A stretch of DNA of 64,000 nucleotides. It comes from Cenococcum geophilum. Taxonomy: Eukaryota. The notes beneath the pieces are model-generated. The model saw nothing but the letters and a program-made list of their open reading frames with translations. It had not been told where the DNA came from and ran no database searches. The stretch covers positions 6,944,001 to 7,008,000 of the forward strand of contig CP158635.1 of assembly GCA_050273025.1 (NCBI GenBank), written 5' to 3'. Shown one piece after another: positions 6,100 through 52,700 of this stretch. Within the stretch, counting starts at the first letter, position 1, and every line of letters starts with the position of its first letter. Position numbers and translations under genes: made by a program.

Positions 6100-6620
6100 A
6101 CCTATTTATATCTATTTACCTATCTATATTACCTACCCATCTATATCTACCTACCTATCTATATCTACTTACCTATCTATATCTACTTACCTATCTATAT
6201 CTACTCACCTATTTATACCTACCTATCTATACTACCTTAATTTAATCAATTAATTAAATCGTTTATAGTGTTTGCTAGCTAGTTGTTATTATCTAGTTCT
6301 AGTAACGGTTATCTAGTTCTAGTAACGGTCGTCTAGTTTTAGCAATAGTTCTCTACTAGCTGTCGTTCTGGTACCTCCCTAGGTAGGGAGGATATAGAGA
6401 AAAAGGGGGGGTGAGAGATAGAGCGGTAGAGGTATATATAGAGCTTTATATAAAGCCTCTATACGCAGAGCTTTGTGCAAAGCCTTTATACGTAGAGCTT
6501 TATATAAAGCTTCGTATAGAGCCTTATATAGAGCCTTATATAGAGCCTTATATAGAGCCTTATACAGAGCCTTGTATAAAGCTTTGTATAAAGCCTTATA
6601 TAAAGCCTTATATAGAGCCT
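6100..6620. repeat. Simple and tandem repeats: (ATCT/ACCT)n, an 18-bp TCTAGTTCTAGTAACGGT repeat and a 12-bp TATAGAGCCTTA array
   Basis: Directly visible periodicity at 6100-6235, 6290-6350 and 6430-6620. Confidence 0.9.
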
Positions 6621-6643
6621 CTAAGTAATAAGACTATATAAAA

Positions 6644-6878
6644 TGTAACCGACTACCGACACTGTGCTGAGACCGCTTGGAAGGCTCCAAGACAGCGTTA
6701 ACGCCACCCTATATATTGATTGCAGATCAATATTGCTTGCAGATCACTGTTCCCATTTCAGTTACCTATTACCCCATTATGTCTTATTACCTCCACCTTC
6801 TTCGTGTATATATAGAGGCTTTAGAGCTACATTCACAATCAAGTCGTTTATGCAATTCCTCACACTGCAAAGCTCACA
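6644..6878 (+). repeat. Copia 5' LTR (235 bp)
   Basis: TG...CA ends; its 3' part recurs at 9581-9629; TATATATAGA TATA-like motif near 6807. Confidence 0.9.
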
Positions 6879-7231: not shown

Positions 7232-8962
7232 ATGACGACCTCTACCGAATCAAAAATCAACCTCATCCTTGACAAGCCATCCGATTGGATTCAATGGTTC
7301 TTTATCATCCAAGACACAGCCAAAACCAACGAGGTATGGCAGTATATCGACCCATCCAAAAAGAAAGACAAGCTTCTAAAGCTGGAACCACCGAATCGGC
7401 CCACACCAAGGGACATACTACCCACGGCTGCATCGATAGCAAAGCTAGACCCTACCCGGCTCACCGCCTACAACCAGCTCTACGCTGAATACAAAGACGA
7501 TCTGCGCATATACGAGAAGCAAAAACAGGCTATAAACGGTATCAGCAACTACATCGTTCGCTCGACATCGGTAGCCTACCTTCCACTCATCGACGGCCTC
7601 GAAACGGTACACGCACGGCTTCAAGCATTGAAGACTGCACTTGCCCCTACCACCTCAGGTCGAAAACACGACGTCCTCAATCAATACACGGCTCTGAAGA
7701 CCTACAATCAAAACCAAAGCATCGATAAATGGTTGAACAGCTGGCGGAACATCTACAAACTTGCGGAGCAGTTGGACCTACTAGACGTACAAGGATTCAG
7801 ACCATACTATGATTTTATTCGAGCAATCAAACCTATCTCTTCTAGCTTCGCAGGGGCACTAGAAGTAGACCTTATTCGCAAGGAACAAAAGGACGAAGCA
7901 GCCCCATCTATCATTGATCTAATTGAAGAATTCAAAGAACATTACCGCATGCAGCAAGCATTTCCTACCACTACTACAAATCACTCTGCCTTTGCAACTC
8001 TTCAAAACAATACCAATTCCAATTCCAATTCGATATGGCATAAGAAATGCATATGCGGCCTCACACATCGATACGACGACTGCCACTACATTGTCGAGCA
8101 GAAGCGCCCTCAAGGATGGAAACCAGATCCACACATCCAGCAGAAAGTAGATGAAATGATCTCATTTATACCTTGGGTTAAACGTATGGTCGATCGAATC
8201 CGAAAAAACACAGAAGAACAGGAAGCAAAGAGCACAGAATCTACAATTGATTTTGATTCCAAAACACCACCTTCTAAAACACCGACTAGCCATGCTGCTG
8301 TGTTTAGTACTGGTCAATTTCCATTCGAACTCCAGAACACCTGGATACTCGACCCTGGTGCAGATACCCACGTCTGCAACAACCAAGAAGACTTTACCTT
8401 CTCCTACCCAGCAGCAGAAGACGACTACCTAATTGCTGGCAGAAATTTCGAGAAGATTCAAGCCTACGGAACAGTAACTATTACTGTTGATACACCTACT
8501 GGGAAGTCAAAAATGAAGCTATCCCATGTAGCACTAGTACCTACTATGTTTACAAATATCGTAGCACTATCAAGGGCTACAGATAACGATATCCATTTCG
8601 ACTCAGGACGAAACTTGCTCTACCGTCTAGCAACTGGCAAAACGGTATGCTATGCGAAACGACTAGGGGGCCATTGGGCGCTGATTCACAGACAGCCTAA
8701 GCCTACGAATACCCTAGATTCGACAACTCAATCGACCTTCTCAATAAGAAGACATCAACCAAGCAGAATGGCCCGTAAACCAGTCGGAGCCACAGCTACA
8801 AAATGGCACAAAATTCTGGGCCATGCAGGACCTAACGCTATTGAGCAGCTTCCTAAGCACGTCAATGGCGTAGAGCTCGAAGAGGTAATCGACGAACGAG
8901 CACCACTCAAAATCGAATGCGGCTGCTATAGCCATGAGAGCACGGAATATTCGAGCAGCTAG
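7232..8962 (+). CDS. gag-pol: Copia Gag-protease-GAG-pre-integrase polyprotein, truncated (576 aa)
   Basis: Open ORF; Gag knuckle-like CICGLTHRYDDC, protease WILDPGADTHV, pre-integrase WHKILGHAG; the last ~15 codons come from antisense RT. Confidence 0.92.
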   Translation: MTTSTESKINLILDKPSDWIQWFFIIQDTAKTNEVWQYIDPSKKKDKLLKLEPPNRPTPRDILPTAASIAKLDPTRLTAYNQLYAEYKDDLRIYEKQKQAINGISNYIVRSTSVAYLPLIDGLETVHARLQALKTALAPTTSGRKHDVLNQYTALKTYNQNQSIDKWLNSWRNIYKLAEQLDLLDVQGFRPYYDFIRAIKPISSSFAGALEVDLIRKEQKDEAAPSIIDLIEEFKEHYRMQQAFPTTTTNHSAFATLQNNTNSNSNSIWHKKCICGLTHRYDDCHYIVEQKRPQGWKPDPHIQQKVDEMISFIPWVKRMVDRIRKNTEEQEAKSTESTIDFDSKTPPSKTPTSHAAVFSTGQFPFELQNTWILDPGADTHVCNNQEDFTFSYPAAEDDYLIAGRNFEKIQAYGTVTITVDTPTGKSKMKLSHVALVPTMFTNIVALSRATDNDIHFDSGRNLLYRLATGKTVCYAKRLGGHWALIHRQPKPTNTLDSTTQSTFSIRRHQPSRMARKPVGATATKWHKILGHAGPNAIEQLPKHVNGVELEEVIDERAPLKIECGCYSHESTEYSSS

Positions 8963-9585
8963 GGTTGCTGCATAGGTCTCTTCTTCGGTGATCTGCAGGT
9001 CTCCGCGGACACATAGTCGAGCTTTAAGCTTCTGTAGGTAGCCGTCGCTGTCGAGCTTATATTTGAAGACCCATTTCAGTGGAAGGATCTGCTCATTGCT
9101 TGCCTCTTCCTTTGGTACGATTTTGAATGTCCCTCGACGTTTTAGGTCATTGCATTCTTTTTCCATGGCCTTTTGAAAGCCAGTAGTCAAAGGATACAAT
9201 GACCTAAAACGTCGAGGGACATTCAAAATCGTACCAAAGGAAGAGGCAAGCAATGAGCAGATCCTTCCACTGAAATGGGTCTTCAAATATAAGCTCGACA
9301 GCGACGGCTACCTACAGAAGCTTAAAGCTCGACTATGTGTCCGCGGAGACCTGCAGATCACCGAAGAAGAGACCTATGCAGCAACCCTAGCTGCTCGAAT
9401 ATTCCGTGCTCTCATGGCTATCCCTTAGCACGGTAGCGTCCTACGATTAAGTGGTCTATGCGCGAACACCAGAATCAAAAGTACGCGTATGGCCACGGAG
9501 CCTTGATCCTATTGATTTTATTGGCTAGCTCTTATCGATACCGGTAGGACGCGAAGTACCGTGCTAAGGGATAGCAGCCGCATTC
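8915..9585. repeat. Long inverted repeat of Copia reverse-transcriptase sequence
   Basis: 8928-9152 and 9197-9421 are reverse complements with no mismatch seen (225 bp, 44-nt loop); the arm continues 8915-8929 / 9571-9585 beyond a MITE; it encodes LPLKWVFKYK...KLKARLCVRGDLQ. Confidence 0.95.
9422..9570. mobile_element. 149-bp MITE, CCCTT termini, AT TSD
   Basis: TIR CCCTTAGCACGGTA, inner IR GCGTCCTAC/GTAGGACGC; the empty site is the other hairpin arm (GGCT-AT-AGCAGCC). Confidence 0.9.
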
Positions 9586-13130: not shown

Positions 13131-13428
13131 AAGATTAACTAAGTAGCTTTTATTGAGAAACTTAATAATTTAGGAATATAAGATATTAAAATACCATTTA
13201 GAACCTTTATAATTATTAATTAATTTTTTAGTTAAGAAATCCTTCTAATTAGGGGACCTAAAAATTTCTAAGGTAGGAATTAAACGTATAAACCCTTTAT
13301 TAGTTAGTATACTAGAAGTAAATACTACTAAAAGTTAAGAGGTAAAGTAGGTTATTTTATTATTACTATCTTTCTAAAATAGGCCTAGGCGTTAAAAGTA
13401 AGGAAATACTATTTAATTATTATATACT

Positions 13429-13540
13429 AGGCTCTATAAAATCGGCCTCTATACCTCTACGTAGTAGAGCCCAGAAACCTAGCAGTACTATTAGTGTTTT
13501 ATTAAAATCGTGTTAATAGACTATTAGAGTCGACGCAGAG
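13429..13540 (+). ncRNA. HDV-like ribozyme (RIP-damaged)
   Basis: P1 AGGCTCT/AGAGCCC, P2 CTCTAT/GCAGAG, P3 ACC/AGT, L3 TCTACGT, P1.1 partner AG, long P4, J4/2 GTCGAC (catalytic C>T). Confidence 0.75.
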
Positions 13541-14383
13541 ACGTATATACGGTAGCGCATCGCGGGCGCTACGACGTAGTAGCGATAGGAAAAAATTTCT
13601 TACTAGGAGGGTAAGCCCTAGTAAAGACTTAAAATATAGCTACTACGTCTCTTAATATATAATTTCGAGCTATTAAACTACGGTAATCTACCTCTAATAA
13701 ATCCCTTCTTTCTATATAGTATAACTATATACGCGTAATTAAACAATATACCTTATAGGTAGAAGACCTATAATAAGCCTCTTAACTACCTGCCTTATAT
13801 ACTACTTTATCTATTTAGCCTAAATTTACTAAACGCACGGCATTTAGTATTTCGTCTTCCTCTATATATTAATCTACCTAGCTTTATTCTAATATTGTTA
13901 ATAGTATAGGTACTTAGCTAGGAGTATAATACTAGATTAAGTATATTATTAGATATAGAAGATAGGGACCTAGGATAAGATACCTAGTTTATTCCACTAT
14001 TCCTTTAGGGTAGAAGGTTATATAAAACTAGATTTATACTATAAGTAGGAGAACTATAGATAATGTATATATATATATATAGGGAAGGAAGGGTAGGTAT
14101 ATAGAAATCTTATAGCAATCTATAAAGTTATAAAAGTGTAATATAAGTGGTAGATAGAGTAAGATAGGAAATTAGGATACTCCCTTATAAGAGTCTTAGA
14201 ATAGCGACCTAGTAGTATTTTCCCTCCTATTGATATAGTACGGGTATATTACCTAGTAAGGTATATACTATATTACCTCTTACGTCTCCCTTAGAGGTTT
14301 TTTATACCTATCTTACGGTATTAGTCTATATAGACCTAGATAGTAACCGTATTAGATATTAAATAGAATTAATAATAATAATA
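13429..14383 (+). mobile_element. Ribozyme-headed SINE-like non-LTR retroelement, family X copy 1
   Basis: HDV-like fold at the 5' end, 3' end homologous to family Y, (AAT)n tail, 7-bp TSD ATATACT (13422-28, 14384-90); homologous to 28583-29295. Confidence 0.8.
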
Positions 14384-14911
14384 ATATACTTATTTAGCTA
14401 TTTAACTAGATAACCTCTCTTTAACCTATCTATATAAAACTTATTAGTAAGAATCCTACTATTAATACAATAAGGATTACTATCTCTATAGAGATTGGAT
14501 ATAGTCTTATATTATTTTTAAGCGGTTTAGGTTATTATATAAGTTTATAAAGTTATAATTATAAAATACAAAGCTAATCTTAAGTCTCTTTTCTATTAGA
14601 CCTCTTTACTTTCTCTTTTATATCTTATTGATTTAAGAATATCTTTATCTTTATCTTTATCTATAAAACTATACTTCTTTATACTAGACTTAATAAAAGC
14701 TATATAGCGTACGCGAACTTATAGTCTACTTTTAGAAATAAAATTATTTTATTTTAAGGTCTTAAGCTATAATTTAATGTCTTTAACTATATAGGATAGC
14801 AGATTCTATTTAGTAATATATATACTTAGTCTTACTAGCTGGTTAAGAAATTTTCTAGTAATACTTCCCTTAATATAATAATACTATAGTATATTATCTA
14901 TTTAACTTAGG

Positions 14912-28582: not shown

Positions 28583-29295
28583 TATAAGGGAGTGTTTTAA
28601 TTACCTATCTTATCCTATCTACCTTTTATACTATACTTCTATAATATTATAGATTGCTATTAGATATTATTGTCCATCTCTAGCTTTTTATTGCCCTATA
28701 TATATATCTACGTTACCTATAGCCCTTATACTTATAGCTAAATAATACTCCCTATTTTAATAACCCTCTCTTACCTCTATTTCCTATCTTCCTATATCTA
28801 ATAGTGCGCTTAGCCTAGTACTAGCTATAGGGGTAGACTAAGCCCCTATAGCTAAGCATCCGCGCTATACTACGTATTAAAATATATTATGTAGATTAAG
28901 GTATAGAGGAAGTAGAGGGCGGTTTAGATAAAAGGCTTATTGTAGGCCTTCTGCCTATAAGGTATATACGGTTTAGCTATATATAGGTGCTATATAGTAT
29001 TGTTATACCATATAAAAAGAAGGGTGTCACTACTATAGATAGATGCCGTAATTTAAGTGTACTAGACGTGTACGTAAAGACATAATAGCTATATTAAGTT
29101 TTCGTTAAGGCTTACCCTCCTAGTAAAAAATCTTTACAATACCACTATGTTATAGCGCTAGCGCTGCGCAGCCATATATATGTCTCTACGTTTACTCTAG
29201 TAGTTTATTAGTATAATCCTAATAAAACGCTAATTGTACTGCTAGGTTCCCGGGCTCTACCGCGTAAAGGTATAAAGGCCGATTTTATAGAGCCT
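28583..29295 (-). mobile_element. Ribozyme-headed SINE-like element, family X copy 2 (3'-truncated)
   Basis: Reverse-complement homology to 13429-14190; the tail is missing. Confidence 0.8.
29184..29295 (-). ncRNA. HDV-like ribozyme (RIP-damaged)
   Basis: P1 AGGCTCT/AGAGCCC, P3 ACC/GGT, L3 TTTACGC (from TCCACGC) with GG partner, J4/2 GTAAAC, P2' GTAGAG. Confidence 0.7.
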
Positions 29296-29383
29296 TTAGC
29301 TTTATTATAGTTCTTTATTGGCTTAAATAAGCATATTTTAGCTTTTTAATAGCCTTTTAAGCGCCTAAAGTAATTAGGGTATA

Positions 29384-29469
29384 GGCCGTCAAAAACGGAC
29401 TCTGCACCTGTACGTAGTGACGGCTACGAACCTAAGTCTTCGAAGTTCAGACTTAGAGCCAACGCAGAG
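29384..29469 (+). ncRNA. HDV-like self-cleaving ribozyme
   Basis: P1 GGCCGTC/GACGGCT with G.U at position 1, P2 CTCTGC/GCAGAG, P3 ACC/AGT (RIP of GGT), L3 TGTACGT, P1.1 GT/AC, P4 CTAAGTCT/AGACTTAG, J4/2 GCCAAC. Confidence 0.88.
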
Positions 29470-30396
29470 ACGTCGCACAGCGTGCGATATAACCTAGTGG
29501 TGGTAGTTATAGGTATTATGGGCGGTAGTAAAAAGTTTTATATAGGATGGTGAGATCTTAAAAACAACTACTAAGTGCCCCTTATAGCAATAATAATAAC
29601 ACTATTCTCCTATTAAGGCACCTGTACGATCCAATATGGATGCGCGGCATTTAATAATATCCCCTAACCCCTAGTAGAGAGCATTAATAACCTCTTATGT
29701 TAACGAACAAGCAATTATAAACGAGTAACGAGCAAATATACGGCCCCTTCTAACCCCTAGGGCAATCGCCCGCGGAGCATACGGTTACTTACTATTAACT
29801 ATTAAATACTACCTAGCAGCCTAGATAACACCATACGGTTTTCCTATCTCCTCTTAAGAAGTGGTAACCCTTGGTGAGGGCCTAGTAACTAGGGCCTAGG
29901 CATAAAAGATACTTAGGTATATACGTCCCGCTCGCCTTTTAGTATAGTGGTTTATGGATAAATCCCCCTTACGCCTTCAATAGGCCTTAAGGGGGGGGGG
30001 GTATAGCGTATATAGTAATGGTTAATAAGAGATAGTATATGGGGGGTAGTTAAAATATGGAATACAACTATAAGTATACAGTAATTGAACGGCAAGGCCT
30101 AGCTAGGACATAGTAAACCCTAGCTAGGATAAGCTAGAGAAGGAAGTAGTGGTTCTTAAGGAGTTTGAATATCTAAGGAGGATAGGACGTAGCCGTAGGC
30201 CTGTAGGGCCGCCGCTACGGACAAACATGGCAAACTGGGATTTTTTATCCTACTGAGGTGGCTTATAGGGTTTTTCCTCCCCCAAACTGCAGGGTTTTCT
30301 TCCTATAAATTATAAGTTTTCCCCCTGTAACGGAGTAGTCTGCGTGGGCCTAAATAGGATCCGTATCAGACGTTAATTAAGAATTACTACTACTAC
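29384..30396 (+). mobile_element. Ribozyme-headed SINE-like non-LTR retroelement, family Y copy 1
   Basis: 13-bp TSD TAATTAGGGTATA (29371-83, 30397-409), (TAC)n tail, no long ORF; homologous to 42506-43503. Confidence 0.92.
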
Positions 30397-30810
30397 TAAT
30401 TAGGGTATATTTTTTCTATACCTCCCCAAACTATATCCTCTTATATATCGCTCTTTATAGATATTTAAGCAGATGTATAAGGTATCTGTTTTTATATAGG
30501 GTTAGAAAACTATAATGATTTCTTCTCCCTACTAGTAGATACCGTATCTTTATTATTAATGCAATTTTAGAATAATTTAAGGTTTCTAGTAGATTAGTAA
30601 TTAGGTATATTATCTTTAGGGTAGTAGTATATAGTAATGTTTTTATAAGTACTAATTGAGGATATATAGATTATATTAGTAATATATTTAAGCTTAGTTA
30701 AGGTAATATATATAATATATAATATCTTTATAAAGACAGTAAGTGATATATAGTTAAGAGATTGGATTTAAATATAAGTCAATTTAATAGTATATAAGGA
30801 CTGGGAGTAT

Positions 30811-35606: not shown

Positions 35607-38600
35607 TATTACGGGACACCCCTATAACACCTTATACACGTCCACCTGTTTCTACTAACTTAGCAACTAGAGACCGACCACAAGATAATAATTTGCGGCA
35701 ATCTAACGGCAATCTGCTATATTCTGCTATATTCCGCCAAGTTTTACTAAATCCTGCCAAGTTCTACTAGGACTACTACTTAAATCCTATCCTACTCTGT
35801 ATACGTGTTAACTAAGCAACTAAGCTAATAATATATACCCTTTCTTCTCGTTTTCCTACCTTCTCTCCTTATATAACGTTTTAACCTTATTATATAGTTT
35901 ATATATATAGCTTAATAATATCTACCTCGTTATATATTATTGTCGCTTATACTTACTCTATAACACTACGTTACGTTAACTACTTATACTACTATTAAAA
36001 TGTAGAACGTACCTAAAGTCCCTATAACGGCAGCCAATATACTTACTATACTTAAAGAGCAGATAGTAGGTTTATAGACCCTTATAGAACAAAAGGCCTA
36101 ATACTAATAATTAATTAAAGCCCTCTAAGAAGAAATCCGCATTCTTAAGATACCTACGCTAGAACTTTAAGACCAAACGCTATCCCTAAAGGCCTATATA
36201 CGGAACGCAAGCCCTAAACTAGTAGCAGTTATTTACCTTAAACCAATTACTACACCGCAACGATCCAAAAAACTACTAGACCCCCTAGTATTCACTAATA
36301 AATAACAAAAGCTTTAGTTATTCTTAAGCTGGCTTAGAAATAAGCTAACTAGTAACGCTAACTGCTACCTAACTAAAGCTAACTAACTACTATGCCCTAA
36401 GTTAGTTAGGAGAAGAGGTAGCTAACCTTATTAAACCTCTTTAGCCAAACTTAATATAAAGCCTAGTTAGACTTCTTAAAGCTATATACGGTAATCTAAA
36501 CCACTAAGCCACCGCTTAAAGGAAGATAAATTATATAGCTTAGGAAAAGAAAAGTTTCCTAATATACTTCTCTAAATTTAACCGCTACGTAAGGGAAATA
36601 GGCTGGAATAACTCCACACTAATTAATAGCCTTATTAAATCCCTAAGCCCCAAACTAAAAACTTCCCTAATAGACGTAGATCTACTAGAAGCCCTTAACG
36701 CCTATATAAACGTTATTAATAAACGGTATAATAATATACTGCGTCTAACATTAAAGCCCGCTCCTTAATACAATATAACAGCCCTATAAGTCCCTATTAA
36801 GTTATCTTCCTAGCCTAAGCACTCTAACGCTATATGCATTAACTCTAGAACTCTAAAGTATACCCTATTAGGGTCCCTTAAATAAGAACGACGCATTAAG
36901 CTAGGCCTTTACTTTAAATACGGAAGTAAGTGTTACGGACGCTTTAAGTACAATATTACAACTACTGGAAGAGGAGTCGGAAAAAGCTAGTTGGTTAATA
37001 CAAGCACAGTCTAGGATGGAACCCGTGGAACTATATAACGAGGAATAGTAACCGAGGTCACATAATAAGCTCTATAAGATCTATAAGGAACGCCTTACGT
37101 ACCTTATGTACCTCACGTACCTCACGTACAAGAAGGATTTCATAGGAGTATAGTTGTGTATTTAAGGACCCTTAGTCCCTACTTAGATAGTTCCTTCCTT
37201 ATAGTAATTCTCAGAATATAATTAGAGTTAATCTATTAGGCAACTACTCCACCAGTTATTATTACGTTGTTAACTTCCTACAGTGCCTACACACCTAGCC
37301 CATTAACAAGTCCACCGTAGTTCTTACTACAAGGCTCCGTTACACAATCACTACCTAGTTACGGTCTTAGAAGTTAAACAATATGCTACCAAAAGCAGCT
37401 ATAACAACGCTATTAACGGCAGCAACAACCTTAGGGTTAGGTAACAATACTAATATAGCAGATACTAACTCGCAACTAGTTATAGTCGGGCAGTTATAGG
37501 CAATAGTTAATTAGTTAACAGACAATAACGTAGCACTTAAAAATAGGGTTAATAGAATAGAAGCAGCAAAGGTTAAGTTACCTTTAATTAAGCAATTCTT
37601 AGGAGAGAGATCGAAGCTCAAGGGATTCCTTACGCAAATACACTTTAAAGTCACACAGAAAGGAGCAAAATTGGCAACACCTATGGATCAAGTAGCGTAC
37701 GTAGGATTATTCCTAACAGGAAGAGCGCTTAAATGGTTCAAACCCTACCTTACAGAAATATAGAAAAATAGTATAATAACTACCAATTAGAATATATGAT
37801 ATATGTTCTTAAGCTAAACTAAATTCGTAGAATAATTAACACAAATATTCGGGGACCCGGAAGCAACAACTATAGTAGAAAGAAAGCTTTAGGACCTAAT
37901 ACAGCAAACCTTAACAATTGAATATACAACGCAGTTTTAGATATTAGCTATATAAGTTAAATAGAACAATAAGGCGCTTATAGCACAGTATAAACAAGGA
38001 CTTAAGGCTAAAGTCTAGGACGTAATTATTCTAATAGAAGATGCGGACACCCTTAGGGAATTAATAGATTAAGTAATTAAGATTAATAATAGGATCTTCC
38101 AAAGGGAATAGGCTAAAAGAGGCTAGGATAGAGTTCTACAGTTATATAAGGCGTAGAGTACGCAATAACCAAAGCTAAATTAGAAACTATAGTATAGCGT
38201 AGAGCTAATAGACCTAAGCGGTACTAAAAAAACCTATAAGAGATAGAGAAAACAACTATAAAAACCTAGAAGTTAAGGATTAAGTAATTATAGGACTAAG
38301 AAGCATAGGTTAAACCAAAAATCTTAATAGCAGAAGACGTTTAAGCGGACTGTATAGCAAAAGCAATGGTTTAAAAATAGAGCTTATATAAATTGCGGAA
38401 AACAGGGTTATTTCGCTAAAGACTATAGAAGTAGTTAGAGTTATTATGTAGTAAAGGGAACCAGACTAATAGCATATAACACATACGTATAGAGGGACGA
38501 TAGTATACTATAAGAAATAAAAGAGTGTTTAATCTAAAGTTTTATATTTTATTATAACAACGCATGCCGAATTTATAAAGACGCTAAGTATGGCGCAAGC

Positions 38601-41600: not shown

Positions 41601-42505
41601 AGAAATATAAGTTCTTTACCAAGAAGACAGATTTCGTTAGATTTATTATTAAACTAGGCCAACTTAGTATAGATCCAAAGAAAATCAAGGCTATAGTAAA
41701 TTAGCAAAAACTAGAGAACGTTATACAGCTAAAATCGTTCCTAGGGTTTTACAATTACTGTAAAAGGTTTATAGCTTAATAGTTAAAGAATATTAAGCTA
41801 TTTATAAGGTTAATAAAAAAAGAAGAACCTTAGATATAGGGAGAAGAGTAAAGGAAATTATTTAAGGAGGTTAAGGAGTTGTTTACTTAAGACTTAATCC
41901 TTAAAATCTACCAACTAAAACTAGAGACAGTGGTCGAAACGGATATATTAGACTTTACACTAGGGGCGTACTTCCTATAGAAATATAAAGATAGATAGCA
42001 CTTAGTAGCATACTATAGTTAAAAGATAATACTACTAGAACTAAACTATAACATCTATAATAAGGAGTTATTAGGTATAGTTACAGCACTTTAAAAATAG
42101 AGAGCATTCTTATAAGGCACGGAAAAGCTATTTATAGTTAAGACGGATTATAAGAACCTAACGGGGTTCCTAATAACAAAAGAACTTAATTAGAGACAGG
42201 TTAAATAGGCAAAAATGCTTACAGAATACTATTTTAAGATTTAGTACACTAAGGGCACAGATAATATACGAGTAGATACTCTAAGTAGGAAGGCTAAACT
42301 ATAGAACAATAAGAAGCCATTAGGGGCTTTACTATAAAAAAATATAGATGGATTAATTAAATACAACTATCCGAAAATTATAGTAATAAAAGAAACCAGT
42401 TAAACCTATAAGGCACTAAAGAGTATATAGTTATAAAAGATCTAAGACGCATAGGCAGAGAATCTAGACTTAGAGCAGTACGAAAACCAAAAAGTAATAT
42501 ATATA

Positions 42506-43503
42506 GTAGTAATTCTTTGATTAACGTCTGATACGGATCCTACTGGCCCACGCAGACTACTCCGTCACAGGGGGGAAAACTTGTGTATTTACAGGAAGAA
42601 AACCCCTGCAGTTGGGTTGGGGGAGGAAAAACCCTATGAGCTACCTCAGTCGGATGAAAAACCCCGAATTACCATGTTTGTACGTAGCAGCGGCCCTGCG
42701 GGCCTACAGCACGTCCTCCTCCTTAGATGTTTTGAACTCCTTGGGAACCACTGCTTCCTTCTCCAGCTTATCCAAAGCTAGGGTTCACTACGTCCTAGCT
42801 AGGCCTTGCCGATCGATCGCCGTGTACTTATTGTTTTCTCCCGTATCTTAACCGTCCCCTATGTGCTATCTCTTGTTGACCATTGCCGTATACGCCTTGC
42901 CTCCTTCCCCCCTAGAGCCATTAAAGGCGTAAGGGGGATTCATCCGTTCTAACCACCGTAATACTAATAAGCGAGCGGGATATTGTGTATTTGGGTATCT
43001 TTTGTGCCTAGGCCCCAGCTAGGCCCTCTCTAAGGGTCACCACTCCGTCAAAAGGAGATAGGGAAAACCGTGGGTCGCAATCCAGGCTGCTAGGTAGCAT
43101 TCGGTAGTTGACGGCGAGTGACCGCATACTCCGCGGGCGATTGCCCTGGGGGTTAGGAGGGGCCGTATACTTGCTCGTTTGTGTTCGTTCGCGATCGTTC
43201 GTTCGTCGATGCTTTCAATTGGGGGTTAGGGGACGTTGGATTCCATCTCGTATCCGCGAGGATTACACAGGGTTGAATAAGAGCGTAGCAGTTGTCTACT
43301 ATGAAGGGGGTACCGTCAGTAGTGGTTTTCGAGATCTCACCATCCCATGTGAAAACTTTTCACTACCCCCCACAACATTTTGACCACCACCACGACCCCT
43401 ACCCGCAGCTGTGCGACGTCTCTGCGTTGGCTCTGCTGAGTCCAAAGACCAGCAGGTTCGTAGGCCTCACCACGTATAGGTGCAGAGTCCGATTTCGAGG
43501 ACT
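42506..43503 (-). mobile_element. Ribozyme-headed SINE-like element, family Y copy 2 (little RIP)
   Basis: 14-bp TSD AAGTAATATATATA (42492-505, 43504-17), TAC-repeat tail, absent from the paralogous site in C2 (~60315). Confidence 0.93.
43420..43503 (-). ncRNA. HDV-like ribozyme
   Basis: P1 AGTCCTC/GAGGCCT (one mismatch), P2 CTCTGC/GCAGAG, P3 ACC/GGT, L3 TATACGT with AC partner, P4 CTGCTG/CAGCAG, J4/2 GCCAAC. Confidence 0.82.
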
Positions 43504-44515
43504 AAGTAATATATATACTAAGAAATATCGCAAGAGAGTTTATTAAGTTATTCTATAAGGAACTAACTTAAGGACATAATAGAGCTATGGGCTTAGTGTT
43601 AAGACTCTAAAAGGAGTACATTATTAATAAAATCTAGGGACTAGTAAGGCAAGTTATAAAAGAATATCTAGATTACTAAAGAAATAAACTAGCAAGATAT
43701 AAGCTATATAAAGAGCTATAACCAGTTAAAATACCAGAAAGACCATAAGAGGTTATATTATAGGACTTTATTATAAAGTTACTAAAATTAAGAGATCCTA
43801 TTACTAAATAAGATTATAATGTAATTTTAGTAATAGTAAACAAGCTAATAAAGTGGGGATACTTTATAGCATGCACAGAAGAAATATTAGCGGAAGATAT
43901 CGCTAGAATCTATATTAAAGAAGTATTCGCAAAACATAGAGCACTAAGTAAGATTATATTAGATAGAGATCTAAGATTTATAGCAGCATTTTAGAAGGTA
44001 TTCTTGGCAGAATAAGGAGTTTAAGCAGCAACTTTTACCGCATATTATCCGCAGACAGACGGTTAAACGGAAAGATTAAATTAGACACTAAAATAGTATC
44101 TAAGGCACTATATTAATTATACACAGAATAATTAGGTATTATTATTACTAGTTACACAGTTCGTATACAATGCAATACCTTAAGAAGGAATAGGAACATT
44201 ACTATTTAAGGCGAATTACGGGTACGAACTAAGAATATCATTATCGCTATAATAAGCGAAGAAAATAAGTAGCACAGCTAAGTAAAGAATGGAGATACTA
44301 ATAAATCTTTATATAAACCTTATAAAGATAGTAAAGGTAGTATAATAGAAAATAAAAAAGTACTATAACGCTAAGAGATCTAAGGGACCAAATCTTAAGG
44401 AGGGAGATAAAGTATAGCTACTACATAAAAATTTTAAAAGTTAACAACTAAGTAAGAAGTTAGACTATGTTAAGCTAGGACCTTTTAAAATTAAGAAAAG
44501 GATTTTATTGGTTAT

Positions 44516-49700: not shown

Positions 49701-52700
49701 AGCTAGGTAAAGATCTTTACTAAACTTAATATCCGCCAAGCTTTCCACTGAATTAGGATAGACCCTATATCCGAAGATTTAACAACGTTCCGTACCCGCT
49801 ATGGTTCCTATAAATATAAAGTTCTTCCTTTTAGACTAATAAACGGACCGGCTACGTACCAAAGGTATATAAATAACGTTCTTTTTAATTACCTTAACGA
49901 ATTCTGCACGGTATACTTAGACGATATTCTTATATACTTAGATAACGAACTTAAGTATTAAGTTTATATTAAGAAGGTCCTAGAGAGACTATAGAACGCG
50001 GGCTTATAAGTCAATATTAAGAAATGCGAGTTTAGGGTAAAATGTATAAAATACCTTGGGTTTATTATAACTATGGAAGGAATTAAGGTTAACCCTAAGA
50101 AGGTAGAGGCAATCCGTAACTAGAAGCCCCCTTATATAGTAAAAGGAATCTAGTCCTTCCTTAGTTTTTATAATTTCTACCGCTAGTTTATCCGTAACTA
50201 TAGAATTATAGCAAAACCTCTTATATAACTAACTAGGAAGGACACGCCTTTTATCTTTAATAATAGCTATATAGAGGCCTTTAAAGAGGTAAAGGATTGG
50301 CTTATTTCTTTTCTAATCCTTTATTACTATAACCCGGACCTTAAATTAATGCTAGAAACAGACGCCTTTAATAGGGTTGTAGCGGGAATCCTATTACAGT
50401 TATATCTAGACAGCGAATGGTACCCTATAGCTTTCTTCTTAAAGATAATAGACCCGGCTAAGTGTAACTACAAAGTATATAATAAAGAAATGCTAGCTAT
50501 TATTTAATTACTCTCCTAATGGCGTGTAGAGCTTAAAGGTACGAACTCCCGGATTAAGATATATATAGATTATAAAGCCCTAGAATACTTTATAATTATA
50601 AAGTAGCTTATAGGGCGATAAGCCTAGTAGGCCGAAATACTCTCCTAATTCTTCTTTACGATTATATATTGTTCTAGCAAGTAAAACTCTAAGGCTAATG
50701 CCCTAACCCGAAGAGAACAAGATATAGGACCCTAGGATAAGCTAAAGACCCAATATCGGACGCGCGCCCTCCTTTATCTAGAACAGCTCGACCTATAGAT
50801 CCTTAAGGAGCTAGACTCCTAGTAAAACGAGCTAGCACTAATAGAGGAGTCCTTAGATAAGCTAATAGGGCTAATTAACCGCCTCCTAACTATAAACCGC
50901 ACGGCTAATGCCCTAAGGGCCCTCCGTAAACAAGCCGCGAAAGGAGACCCCGATTTTAAGATGGAGGAAGGATTGCTCCTATACCAGGAGCGGCTTATAG
51001 TCCCTAATGTTAATAATCTACAGACTAAACTAATCCGCGAAGCTTATTGCTAAGTCTCTACGGCATACCCTAGCAAGAACAAGACCCGTAAAATTATTAA
51101 CTGCCGCTACTATTAGCCGAGAATGGTTGCGGATATTAATTAATATATATAGAACTGCGAAGACTGCTGGAGAGCTATAATCCTACGGGATAAGACCCTA
51201 GGACTACTTAAGCCACTCCCGATACTAGAGCGCCCTTAGCAGTATATCTTTATAGACTTCTATAAACTACCTAGGGACCGTGACGGATACGATATAGTTA
51301 TAGTTATAGTTAACCGCTTTAGTAAACGCCCGTTTTTAATTCCATATTATAAGAATATCGATGCCAAAGAGGCAGCCTAGCTATATATCTATTACGTCTA
51401 CCGAATCTACAGACTACTAGATACTATTATATCCGATTGCGGGCCGTAGTTTATATTGGCCTTCTGGAATAAGTTTACCTAGATCCTAGGCATTAAGCTA
51501 AAGCTTTCTACGGCTTATTACCCCTAGATAGACGGTTAGACAGAGATTGTAAATTAGTACCTAGACTAGAGGCTTAGGCCCTTTATTAACTATTTCTAGG
51601 ATAACTAGTCTAAACTACTACCCTTAATAGACTACGCGCAAGCAACCCTACCCTATAACTCCACAGGGTTTGCTCTAATTTAGCTGGAAATAGGATACTT
51701 ACCCCGTATAAGCTTTAACTAAAAAAGGCTAGAAGAACCCTAAACTATATAAGAGAAGCTATCCTATGCTAAGGCCTAATAGTACGCTAAATGATTAGAG
51801 GAGGCCTAGACGGTAGCCCGCGAGAACCTAGAAAAAGCTTAGAGGTTAATGGAATAGTAGGCGAACAAACACCGTCGAGAGCCCAATTTTACCCCTGGCG
51901 ATATGGTCTAGGTTATAATAAGAAATTAGAGGACTGAACGACCTAGCTATAAGCTAGACTACTAGATAGTAGGACCGTATAAGGTTCTTAAGAAGATAGG
52001 CAACTTGTATAAGATAAAGCTCCCAGACTTAATTAGGGTTTACCCTATCTTTTCGCCAGATAAGTTACGGAAAGCTATAAACGACCTATTGCCTAGATAA
52101 AAGAACGAGCCTTCCCTACTAGTTTAAGTAAACGGTAATAACAAATAGGAGGTTAACAAAATACTGGCCTATAAGATAGTACGGGGAGTGCTAAAATACC
52201 GTGTTTAATAGAAGGGCTATAATCCTGACCTAACCTAGTACCCTATATGGAACTTTATAGGCTGCCCCTAGAAGCTTAAAGAATTCTATAACTAATACCC
52301 TAATGCGCCTAGACCCCCAAAGTACCTAGACAAATAGTTGGAATACTGGCATAATAAAGACGATAAGTTACCGAAAGAATATAGGGACAAAAACACCCTA
52401 AAGCCCTAATACAGCTGTCTGCTAAATTCTACCATATTCTGCCGTTTTCTGCTAGTACCGTAAAATTTTAGATGTCTAGGAACTTTAACCGCCGGTTAAA
52501 GTTGTCTAATTAGTTAGATCCGTGCTAAGACTTTTAGCGGCTACTCTTTTTGGCCTAGTGCTTCCACTTAGCCTACAATCGCCTTTTGTACTTAGTTAGG
52601 ACGGACTCGTGTCCCCTTTTATCTCCTTATCTTATATTTTTATAATCCTACATTTATAAGCCTAGTGCTACCCTATTTTTTTTAACTAAGCCTAAGGGCA

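Follow-up and report, generated by a model that had tools for sequence, protein, structure and literature searches.

The question raised by this locus is why two dispersed repeats with unrelated interiors should begin and end alike. The stretch concerned, a window of 64,000 nucleotides from the Cenococcum geophilum genome (assembly GCA_050273025.1, contig CP158635.1, positions 6,944,001 to 7,008,000; coordinates below count from its first base), carries copies of two such families, termed X and Y. A preliminary description, made from the letters of the window, had proposed a diversified superfamily of short interspersed nuclear elements (SINEs) headed by one ribozyme under structural selection, with repeat-induced point mutation (RIP) inactivating individual ribozymes. 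From the evidence set out below, we place at about 80% the probability that X and Y are two families of non-autonomous retroposons dependent on a long interspersed nuclear element (LINE), that they reside in a RIP-active fungus and that their head is a self-cleaving ribozyme resembling that of hepatitis delta virus (HDV).

Anatomy of the X and Y elements

Two X copies (beginning at 13429 on the + strand and at 29295 on the − strand) and two Y copies (29384, +; 43503, −) were delimited. The elements are non-coding, approximately 0.9-1.0 kb long, and have microsatellite tails and target-site duplications. Their coordinates are as follows.

13429..14383, + strand: X1, full-length X retroposon with heavy RIP mutation; the interval takes in the (TAA/AAT)n tail, which starts at 14370
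13422-13428 (upstream) and 14384-14390 (downstream): target-site duplication of X1, ATATACT, read directly from the sequence
28583..29295, − strand: X2, X-family copy without its last ~195 nt
29384..30396, + strand: Y2, full-length Y retroposon with a (TAC)n tail
29371-29383 and 30397-30409: 13-bp target-site duplication of Y2, TAATTAGGGTATA
42506..43503, − strand: Y1, full-length Y copy, nearly unmutated (GC 0.52), with the tail TAC TAC
43504-43517 and 42492-42505: 14-bp target-site duplication of Y1, TATATATATTACTT
14304..14369 (+) in X1, 30317-30386 in Y2 and 42513-42582 in Y1: shared 3' module

Within the families, X1 and X2 were 75% identical over 377 nt and matched again over 155 nt further in (67% between X1 1-761 and X2 1-713 with more permissive scoring), while Y1 and Y2 were 76% identical over ~1,030 nt. 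Between the families, blastn found homology at the two ends only. Specifically, X1 10-53 corresponded to Y2 8-51 and X1 96-200 to Y2 70-182 on the 5' side, and X1 874-952 to Y2 934-1012 on the 3' side (70% identity, E 1.4e-7). X and Y thus have in common a 5' module of ~90-115 nt and a 3' module of ~80 nt, and the bodies in between are unrelated, as had been claimed. Within the window, the motif GGCTCT...AGAGCC with a spacing of 20-50 nt occurs twice, exactly at the heads of X1 and X2, against an expectation of 0.19 (two occurrences were reached in 1 of 100 shuffles).

All three complete copies of the window (X1, Y1 and Y2) have the anatomy of a target-primed retroposon. The hallmarks of retroposons without long terminal repeats (non-LTR retroposons) were found, namely target-site duplications that differ in sequence from copy to copy, a tail of microsatellite repeats and the lack of terminal repeats; the tails among copies are (TAC)n, (TTA)n or (AAT)n. 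The earlier statement that X ends in (AAT)n followed by a 7-bp duplication was confirmed for X1, where the tail occupies 14370-14385 and ATATACT stands on both sides. The duplication may be longer, as up to 15 bp are possible with 2 mismatches, and its length is ambiguous (7 to 15 bp) because it runs into the tail. The 3' module and tail of X2 were not found within the window. The heads of X2 and Y2 face each other across a gap of 88 bp (29296-29383), an arrangement that looks like clustered insertion; the two were also considered as one unit, and this was rejected because Y2 has its own 13-bp target-site duplication.

Searches with a pattern taken from the head (described below) yielded at least 121 relatives in metagenome contigs from several samples, 39 of X type and 82 of Y type among those listed; the same pattern had no match in a prokaryote genome collection and none in viral contigs. 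Both ends lay within the fetched DNA for 41 listed relatives, and these complete elements measure 883-955 nt (X-type) or 974-1,039 nt (Y-type). This bears on the term SINE in the preliminary description. In the strict sense, a SINE has a head transcribed by RNA polymerase III and derived from tRNA, 7SL or 5S RNA, and is usually shorter than 600 bp; the present elements are 883-1,039 bp long without a tRNA-like head, and ARAGORN found no tRNA-like sequence in the window. The proposed superfamily with RIP-damaged ribozymes is upheld by the RIP spectrum, the shared head and tail and the covariation reported below, and the word SINE proved loose for elements of ~1 kb without such a head. The label "non-autonomous non-LTR retroposon" fits X and Y better.

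No frame in the elements exceeds 148 codons. Eight frames, picked from 16 open frames of at least 105 codons, were submitted to Pfam and matched 0 families. We treat the frames of 105-148 codons in the relatives as chance occurrences, because the frame differs between copies and the eight submitted had no Pfam match.

The 3' module contains a conserved 5-bp stem (GTCTG...CAGAC in relatives) just before the tail, with little covariation, and is likely to be a candidate recognition site for the reverse transcriptase of the partner element. Additional 60-nt copies of the module stand beside full elements in two relatives, tail to tail in L032 (465-526) and upstream in L076 (2528-2589); the sequence preceding them is not Y body and is without reading frames. 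In L014 (~299-790) a short derivative was observed in which a Y-type head is joined straight to the 3' region. This internal-deletion form shows that head and tail can exist without the usual body.

Common ends around differing bodies are what internal-deletion derivatives of a long autonomous LINE would show. X and Y could accordingly be fragments of such an element (its 5' and 3' untranslated regions with bodies of decayed coding sequence), or else chimaeras of assembly or recombination, and the direct junction of L014 would suit this explanation. We regard it as very improbable, given that the 41 complete relatives keep to 883-1,039 nt and have their own target-site duplications, that the bodies have no Pfam match and that only Ty3/Gypsy- and Copia-type domains were recognised in the 40 of 61 window frames submitted. 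An origin by deletion would, moreover, still make X and Y non-autonomous retroposons.

Fold, covariation and core bases of the head

From the first base of the element, the head was drawn as P1 (7 bp), J1/2, P2 (6 bp), P3 (ACC/GGT), a 7-nt L3 and P1'. On the 3' side of P1' follow two bases that pair with L3 positions 2-3 (P1.1), GAA, the P4 hairpin, a J4/2 of 5 nt whose first base is C, and P2'. All five helices could be placed in a nested double pseudoknot of the order P1-P2-P3-L3-P3'-P1'-P1.1-P4-J4/2-P2', the helix order by which the HDV-like fold is defined in PMC3774820. The designation of the heads as ribozymes, and their predicted self-cleavage, derive from fold and homology. In the window they are located as follows.

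13429..13540, + strand: X1 putative ribozyme module (covariance-model match 72.4 bits); P1 13429-13435/13466-13472, P2 13447-13452/13535-13540, P3 13453-13455/13463-13465, L3 13456-13462, P1.1 partner 13473-13474, P4 13478-13529, J4/2 13530-13534 (the catalytic position, 13530, is T)
29184..29295, − strand: X2 putative ribozyme module (73.6 bits); P1 29295-29289, L3 29268-29262, P1' 29258-29252, P1.1 partner 29251-29250, J4/2 29194-29190, P2' 29189-29184
29384..29469, + strand: Y2 putative ribozyme module (105.3 bits); P1 29384-29390/29419-29425 with G.U at its base, P2 29400-29405/29464-29469, P3 29406-29408/29416-29418, L3 29409-29415, P1.1 partner AC 29426-29427, P4 29431-29458, J4/2 CCAAC 29459-29463
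43420..43503, − strand: Y1 putative ribozyme module (98.3 bits); P1 43503-43497/43468-43462 with one U.C mismatch common to its subfamily, L3 43478-43472, P1.1 partner 43461-43460, P4 43456-43431, J4/2 43430-43426, P2' 43425-43420

X1 reads AGGCTCT/AGAGCCC in P1, ACC/AGT in P3 and TCTACGT in L3, followed by AG; X2 has the same P1, ACC/GGT in P3 and TTTACGC in L3, followed by GG. The P1 of (A/G)GGCTCT/AGAGCCC given earlier for X is therefore present in both copies, with A rather than A/G as the first base, and the pairing of L3 with (G/A)G holds as AG in X1 and GG in X2, while the TCC of the L3 given as TC(C/T)ACG occurs in neither window copy and only in relatives (TCCACGC). L3 is TGTACGT in Y2 and TATACGT in Y1, and AC follows as the P1.1 partner in both.

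Relatives were collected with a degenerate pattern of 33 letters in which the 5' strand of P2, P3, part of L3 and GAACC were fixed and L3 positions 2-3, P1' and P1.1 were left free (N). Among the 39 X-type relatives listed, L3 is mostly TCCACGC and P1 is GGGCT(C/T)C/GGAGCCC, and the next two bases are GG in 18, AG in 14 and AA in 7. Among the 82 of Y type, L3 is TGTACGT or TATACGT, P1 is GGCCGTC/GACGGCT or GGTCCTC/GAGGCCT, and the next two bases are AC in 81 and AT in 1. The coupling between L3 and its partner is complete in all 121 listed, T[C/T][C/T]ACG going with GG, AG or AA and T[G/A]TACG with AC or AT.

As MAFFT misregistered the 5' strand of the X-type P1 by two columns, model R2 was built from 30 sequences with P1 in register, and alignment A3 comprises the 103 copies that this model found in the window and in 99 of the listed loci. 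Standard pairs fill 95.1% of the 2,266 pair cells of A3, compared with 26.6-43.0% in six controls slid by 1-3 columns. Eight of 22 pairs change on both sides, amounting to 165 cells (at most 9 in slid controls), and the covariation score is 0.234 (at most 0.045 when slid); paired share, cell count and score were each reached by 0 of 500 shuffles. These pair counts lean towards the fold, since the pattern fixed the 5' strand of P2, P3 and part of L3 and A3 was fitted to P1, P3 and the P4 base, and since the copies are related by descent the double-change cells reflect only perhaps 6-8 independent events. Lack of significant covariation in a larger alignment had been named in advance as a result that would count against the proposed ribozyme superfamily; the covariation found exceeds both kinds of control.

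In P1, four of the seven pairs change on both sides, transversion swaps included: columns 9-51 are CG in 54 copies and GC in 34, columns 11-49 GC in 51, UA in 35 and CG in 11, and columns 12-48 UA in 70 and CG in 17. The foot pair of P1 is G.U in 72, G-C in 20 and A-U in 5 of the 103. Both pairs of P1.1 are likewise among the eight. Columns 38-55 are GC in 53 and CG in 26 (21 of 103 unpaired) and columns 39-54 UA in 70 and CG in 14 (17 of 103 unpaired), so that X-type heads have C-G/C-G in P1.1 and Y-type heads U-A/G-C. The double compensatory change inferred earlier from the window copies is thus seen across 103 copies. Non-RIPped Y copies carry U-A and G-C, and the Y-type P1.1 is therefore original and not a product of RIP. 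This natural swap is, in our view, the most interesting detail of X and Y. P4 occurs in 84 distinct versions, the shortest of 17 nt and the longest of 54 nt, and for 79 of them RNAfold predicts a hairpin that closes near the ends.

The Y1 subfamily has a U.C mismatch fixed at the third pair of P1. Its P1 is exactly GGTCCTC/GAGGCCT in 8 copies of A3, and 3 more, including the window Y1, are one-base variants. Members are L005, L042, L061, L070, L074, L079, L091, L097, L099 and L105 besides the window copy; the subfamily has its own P4, yet shows many insertions at different sites.

The base at the position of the putative catalytic cytosine is T in X1 (13530) and X2 (29194), as first described, and C in Y2 (29459) and Y1 (43430). 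Of 99 listed relatives, 98 open J4/2 with C (all 66 of Y type and 32 of the 33 of X type), the exception being L013 with T, and J4/2 reads CAAAC in the X-type relatives. The less mutated members of the X family thus retain the J4/2 cytosine, whose absence from the family would have spoken against the proposed superfamily, and because C is present in 32 of the 33, T in both window X copies is taken as a derived C>T change in CpA context.

This substitution agrees with the general state of the copies, for which each window copy was compared with its nearest listed relative. X1 and L027 align over 3-935 with 74.7% identity, and C>T accounts for 96 of their 212 differences and G>A for another 90, whereas reverse transitions number 9 and transversions 17. 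The changes lie mainly in CpA/TpG and CpG contexts, and the GC content of X1 is 0.32 versus 0.52 in the relative. Changes of C>T or G>A make up 69 of 79 differences between X2 and L078 and 78 of 95 between Y2 and L004 (90.4% identity), and only 12 of 41 between the barely affected Y1 and L070 (94.5% identity). Of 119 positions compared in the head, X1 departs from the X-type majority at 33 and X2 at 37, including the J4/2 C, L3 and P2. Judged from these letters, the pattern fits disablement of individual ribozymes by RIP, with a probable loss of activity in both window X heads.

With regard to known families, Rfam gave 0 matches at gathering score over the whole window, and scans by E-value over the two RIP-mutated X copies gave no ribozyme family. 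Short scans of three less damaged heads gave matches below the gathering score. Y1 matched RF02682 over exactly 43420-43503 (11.8 bits, the second of 2 matches); the X-type L022 matched RF01787 (17.5 bits, E 0.18) and RF00094 (12.9 bits) and nothing else; and the Y-type L026 matched RF02682 (14.3 bits) and RF01787 (11.8 bits) as first and second of 3. HDV-type families hence ranked first in two of the three short scans and second in the third, always in the register drawn by hand. L3 aligned in register with the conserved UCCuCGc-like loop of the models, and the J4/2 C with the corresponding C in the consensus (GCUAA / GGCuAA) of RF02682 and RF00094. As the best scores fall below the gathering thresholds, the heads are not members of RF00094, RF01787 or RF02682; the sub-threshold matches nevertheless point to the HDV class.

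A drawing of this kind could also arise as a chance fold in AT-rich repeat DNA. A descriptor of HDV-like pairing alone finds ~7,470 matches per shuffled window at up to 3 mismatches (40 shuffles) and thousands in the window too, and minimum-free-energy z-scores are unremarkable (-0.03 to -2.5). Since pairing alone does not discriminate, support comes from the covariation over 103 copies, from 5' ends defined by duplications that coincide with the predicted cut (below) and from the HDV-type Rfam matches; together with conservation across the 121 listed copies from several samples, these make a chance fold, already disfavoured, the most improbable of the explanations weighed here. The minimum-free-energy folds show either P1 and P4 or P2 and P4, as a pseudoknot would give. 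In Y-type heads (29386-29398; L026 1487-1499) they pair CCGU of the P1 5' strand with ACGG of J1/2, a possible competitor helix that would need opening before P1 forms.

Element 5' ends, RNA and a proposed route of mobilisation

The ends of the 41 complete relatives were then compared with the site at which cleavage is predicted. Direct repeats of 6 bp or more flank 40 of the 41, and in 38 the repeat reaches 10 bp or more; most are 13-15 bp long. In 32 of 41 the upstream repeat stops exactly at the base before P1, which is the predicted cleavage site; in a control placed 100 nt upstream, the same offset occurred in 2 of 41, and 24 were without a repeat. The duplications of X1, Y1 and Y2 in the window likewise end directly upstream of P1. 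Integrated copies therefore start where cleavage is predicted. RNA processed by a ribozyme would give these 5' ends.

Transcription of the family could be followed in public data. Of the words sampled from the Y1 stretch, half or more are present in each of 20 public runs from 11 studies, and 6 of these runs are recorded as RNA. In a raw RNA-seq run placed on Y1, 11,987 reads aligned at 85% likeness or more, 10,379 of them fitting only in part. The depth of pairs with the first mate on the + strand exceeded that of pairs with the first mate on the − strand in 29 of 29 covered bins (2,917.6 versus 59.0, for example), which under the usual library convention, assumed here, means sense-strand RNA of the element. 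The reads are evidence of transcription of the family only, and not of cleavage or of an RNA 5' end. Metatranscriptome contigs also hold the element, and in these DNA carry-over is possible.

We propose the following route for X and Y. The elements are built of a 5' head, a family-specific body, a shared 3' module and a microsatellite tail, and would be transcribed inside a longer read-through RNA. The ribozyme would cut immediately 5' of the first P1 nucleotide, and the retroposon RNA would therefore start at its own first base. The reverse transcriptase of a partner LINE would copy this RNA from the 3' module and tail by target-primed reverse transcription, and insertion would leave the target-site duplications of 13-15 bp. 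The fold would be kept across the families by compensatory changes such as C-G/C-G in X and U-A/G-C in Y at P1.1. As to the present state of the window, both X copies and Y2 are degraded by RIP, both X heads have lost the J4/2 cytosine and with it presumably their activity, and Y1 is nearly intact.

Besides the limits already given for pairing, folding energy and pair counts, several observations weigh against this proposal. A partner LINE with the same head or tail was not found in the window or in the 121 listed short loci; the hunt yielded only 3' ends of X and Y themselves, three odd fragments that contain no reading frame, and remnants of Ty3/Gypsy and Copia elements. Rfam scores of 11.8-17.5 bits are far from gathering thresholds of 37-50, an A occupies one or both P1.1 partner positions in 21 of the 39 listed X-type relatives (giving a C.A mismatch), and the U.C mismatch in P1 is fixed throughout the Y1 subfamily. 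In the RNA reads, ends pile up at 43491, with 287 molecules stopping there against a neighbouring depth of 775. This position is 12 nt inside the predicted 5' end, and the pile-up may be a clipping artefact, as the window copy diverges there from the family majority. Lastly, an internal promoter at base 1 would give the same 5' ends as cleavage.

The last point leads to the strongest of the alternatives, in which the head is a conserved structured 5' element without catalysis (an internal promoter, a signal for packaging or reverse transcriptase binding, or a determinant of translation or stability) and the 5' end stems from transcription initiation. Target-site duplications show where the complementary DNA copies start and not how the RNA end arises, which suits this explanation, as do the sub-threshold Rfam scores and the weakening of P1.1 in many X-type copies; it does not account for compensatory changes in P1 and P1.1, whose sole known role is in the HDV-type active site and cut, for the J4/2 C kept in nearly every listed relative, for an L3 in the register of the HDV consensus, or for HDV-type families standing at or near the top of all three Rfam scans. 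We consider a non-catalytic head unlikely, and retain the HDV-like self-cleaving head as the preferred explanation.

Neighbouring repeats, implications and known systems

The remainder of the window is AT-rich (GC 0.24-0.42 in 2-kb steps) and filled with diverged repeats. Only two frames exceed 120 codons, with Pfam matches to the Copia-type Pol_BBD and RVT_2; the 40 shorter frames compared with Pfam, out of 61 of at least 62 codons, gave Ty3/Gypsy-type RVT_1, RT_RNaseH and capsid domains and one more RVT_2. The following were noted in addition.

37515-37760 and 49752-50504: Ty3/Gypsy-type remains (capsid-like, RVT_1, RT_RNaseH_2) amid the large diverged repeats that fill the right half
8928-9173 / 9176-9421: near-perfect inverted duplication in a Copia-like region, with arms of 246 nt, 97% complementary and spaced by 2 nt
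8741-9307 (−) and 9177-9425 (+): RVT_2-like frames pointing outward from the inverted duplication at 8928-9421
1301-2075 and 6404-6644: two arrays built from a 12-nt repeat that resembles AGAGCTTTRTRT, for which the listed families count 25 and 12 copies; the second array is immediately upstream of the Copia-like frame

On a broader reading, about which we are evenly divided, X and Y would represent the first described fungal system of ribozyme-terminated retroposons. This would be a superfamily of modular design, with a single HDV-like head and a single tail, the latter recognised by a reverse transcriptase, combined with several unrelated bodies, with catalytically active master copies, a lineage whose P1.1 is U-A plus G-C, and an unseen fungal LINE with the same head and tail that mobilises them all. 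If so, the strategy of ribozyme-processed retrotransposition would extend beyond animals and trypanosomes to filamentous fungi, and self-excision from read-through transcripts would explain how short retroposons without promoters are expressed in fungal genomes. A literature search did not find HDV-like ribozymes described in fungal retroposons, and an earlier description may exist. The more than 120 copies in at least two families also constitute a natural mutagenesis series for the HDV fold, such as few HDV-like groups offer, covering the P1.1 swap, a tolerated U.C mismatch in P1 and a P4 of 17 to 54 nt. For genome annotation, model R2 provides a structural marker, still effective after RIP, for a repeat class missed by standard Rfam cut-offs.

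Among known ribozymes, the HDV class (RF00094, RF01787 and RF02682) agrees with the X and Y heads in helix order, in a 7-bp P1 with G at +1 and a foot that is mostly G.U, in a 3-bp P3, a 7-nt L3, a 2-bp P1.1 and a variable P4, and in C as the first base of J4/2. The heads differ from these Rfam families in their sub-gathering scores, in a 5-nt J4/2 (C-C/A-A-A-C) and, in Y, in the replacement of both G-C pairs of P1.1. Reports of HDV-like ribozymes extend to a fungus, according to a passage of PMC3774820 that makes no link to a retroposon family.

Other short retroelements carry ribozymes of a different class. Retrozymes have LTR ends and a circular RNA stage. Both retrozymes and the schistosome SINEs that carry a hammerhead are, according to the review PMC6765202, short non-autonomous retroelements with a small self-cleaving ribozyme. 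Their ribozymes are of the hammerhead class, whereas X and Y have HDV-like heads and are linear elements with a 3' tail and a target-site duplication around them.

In Trypanosoma cruzi, NARTc is the non-autonomous partner of L1Tc. For dispersed non-LTR elements, a ribozyme of HDV type at the start, which frees them from read-through transcripts, is described in PMC3185411 and in the review PMC6765202. By these accounts, L1Tc/NARTc of Trypanosoma cruzi, RTE and baggins resemble X and Y in having an HDV-like ribozyme at the first nucleotides of the element. They differ in their trypanosome and animal hosts and in that their heads belong to, or come from, known autonomous LINEs, while only non-autonomous families were seen for X and Y. 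The Y-type P1.1 of U-A plus G-C is a further difference.

The short internally deleted elements (SIDEs) of Drosophila provide a close parallel in construction. As described in PMC3774820, SIDEs are non-autonomous and keep only the 5' HDV-like ribozyme and the 3' end of the R2 element; the ribozyme cuts the SIDE out of a co-transcript, and the 3' region is recognised by the machinery of the partner. X and Y do not belong to this type, which derives by deletion from a known autonomous element and is specific to a site in ribosomal DNA (rDNA), as they occupy many insertion sites. SIDEs have one 28S rDNA site and a known parent, whereas the fungal elements are dispersed with variable duplications of 13-15 bp, end in microsatellite tails, have bodies unrelated between families and came without a parent in our searches. 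In spite of these differences, the logic of a head plus a tail is the same in SIDEs as in X and Y.

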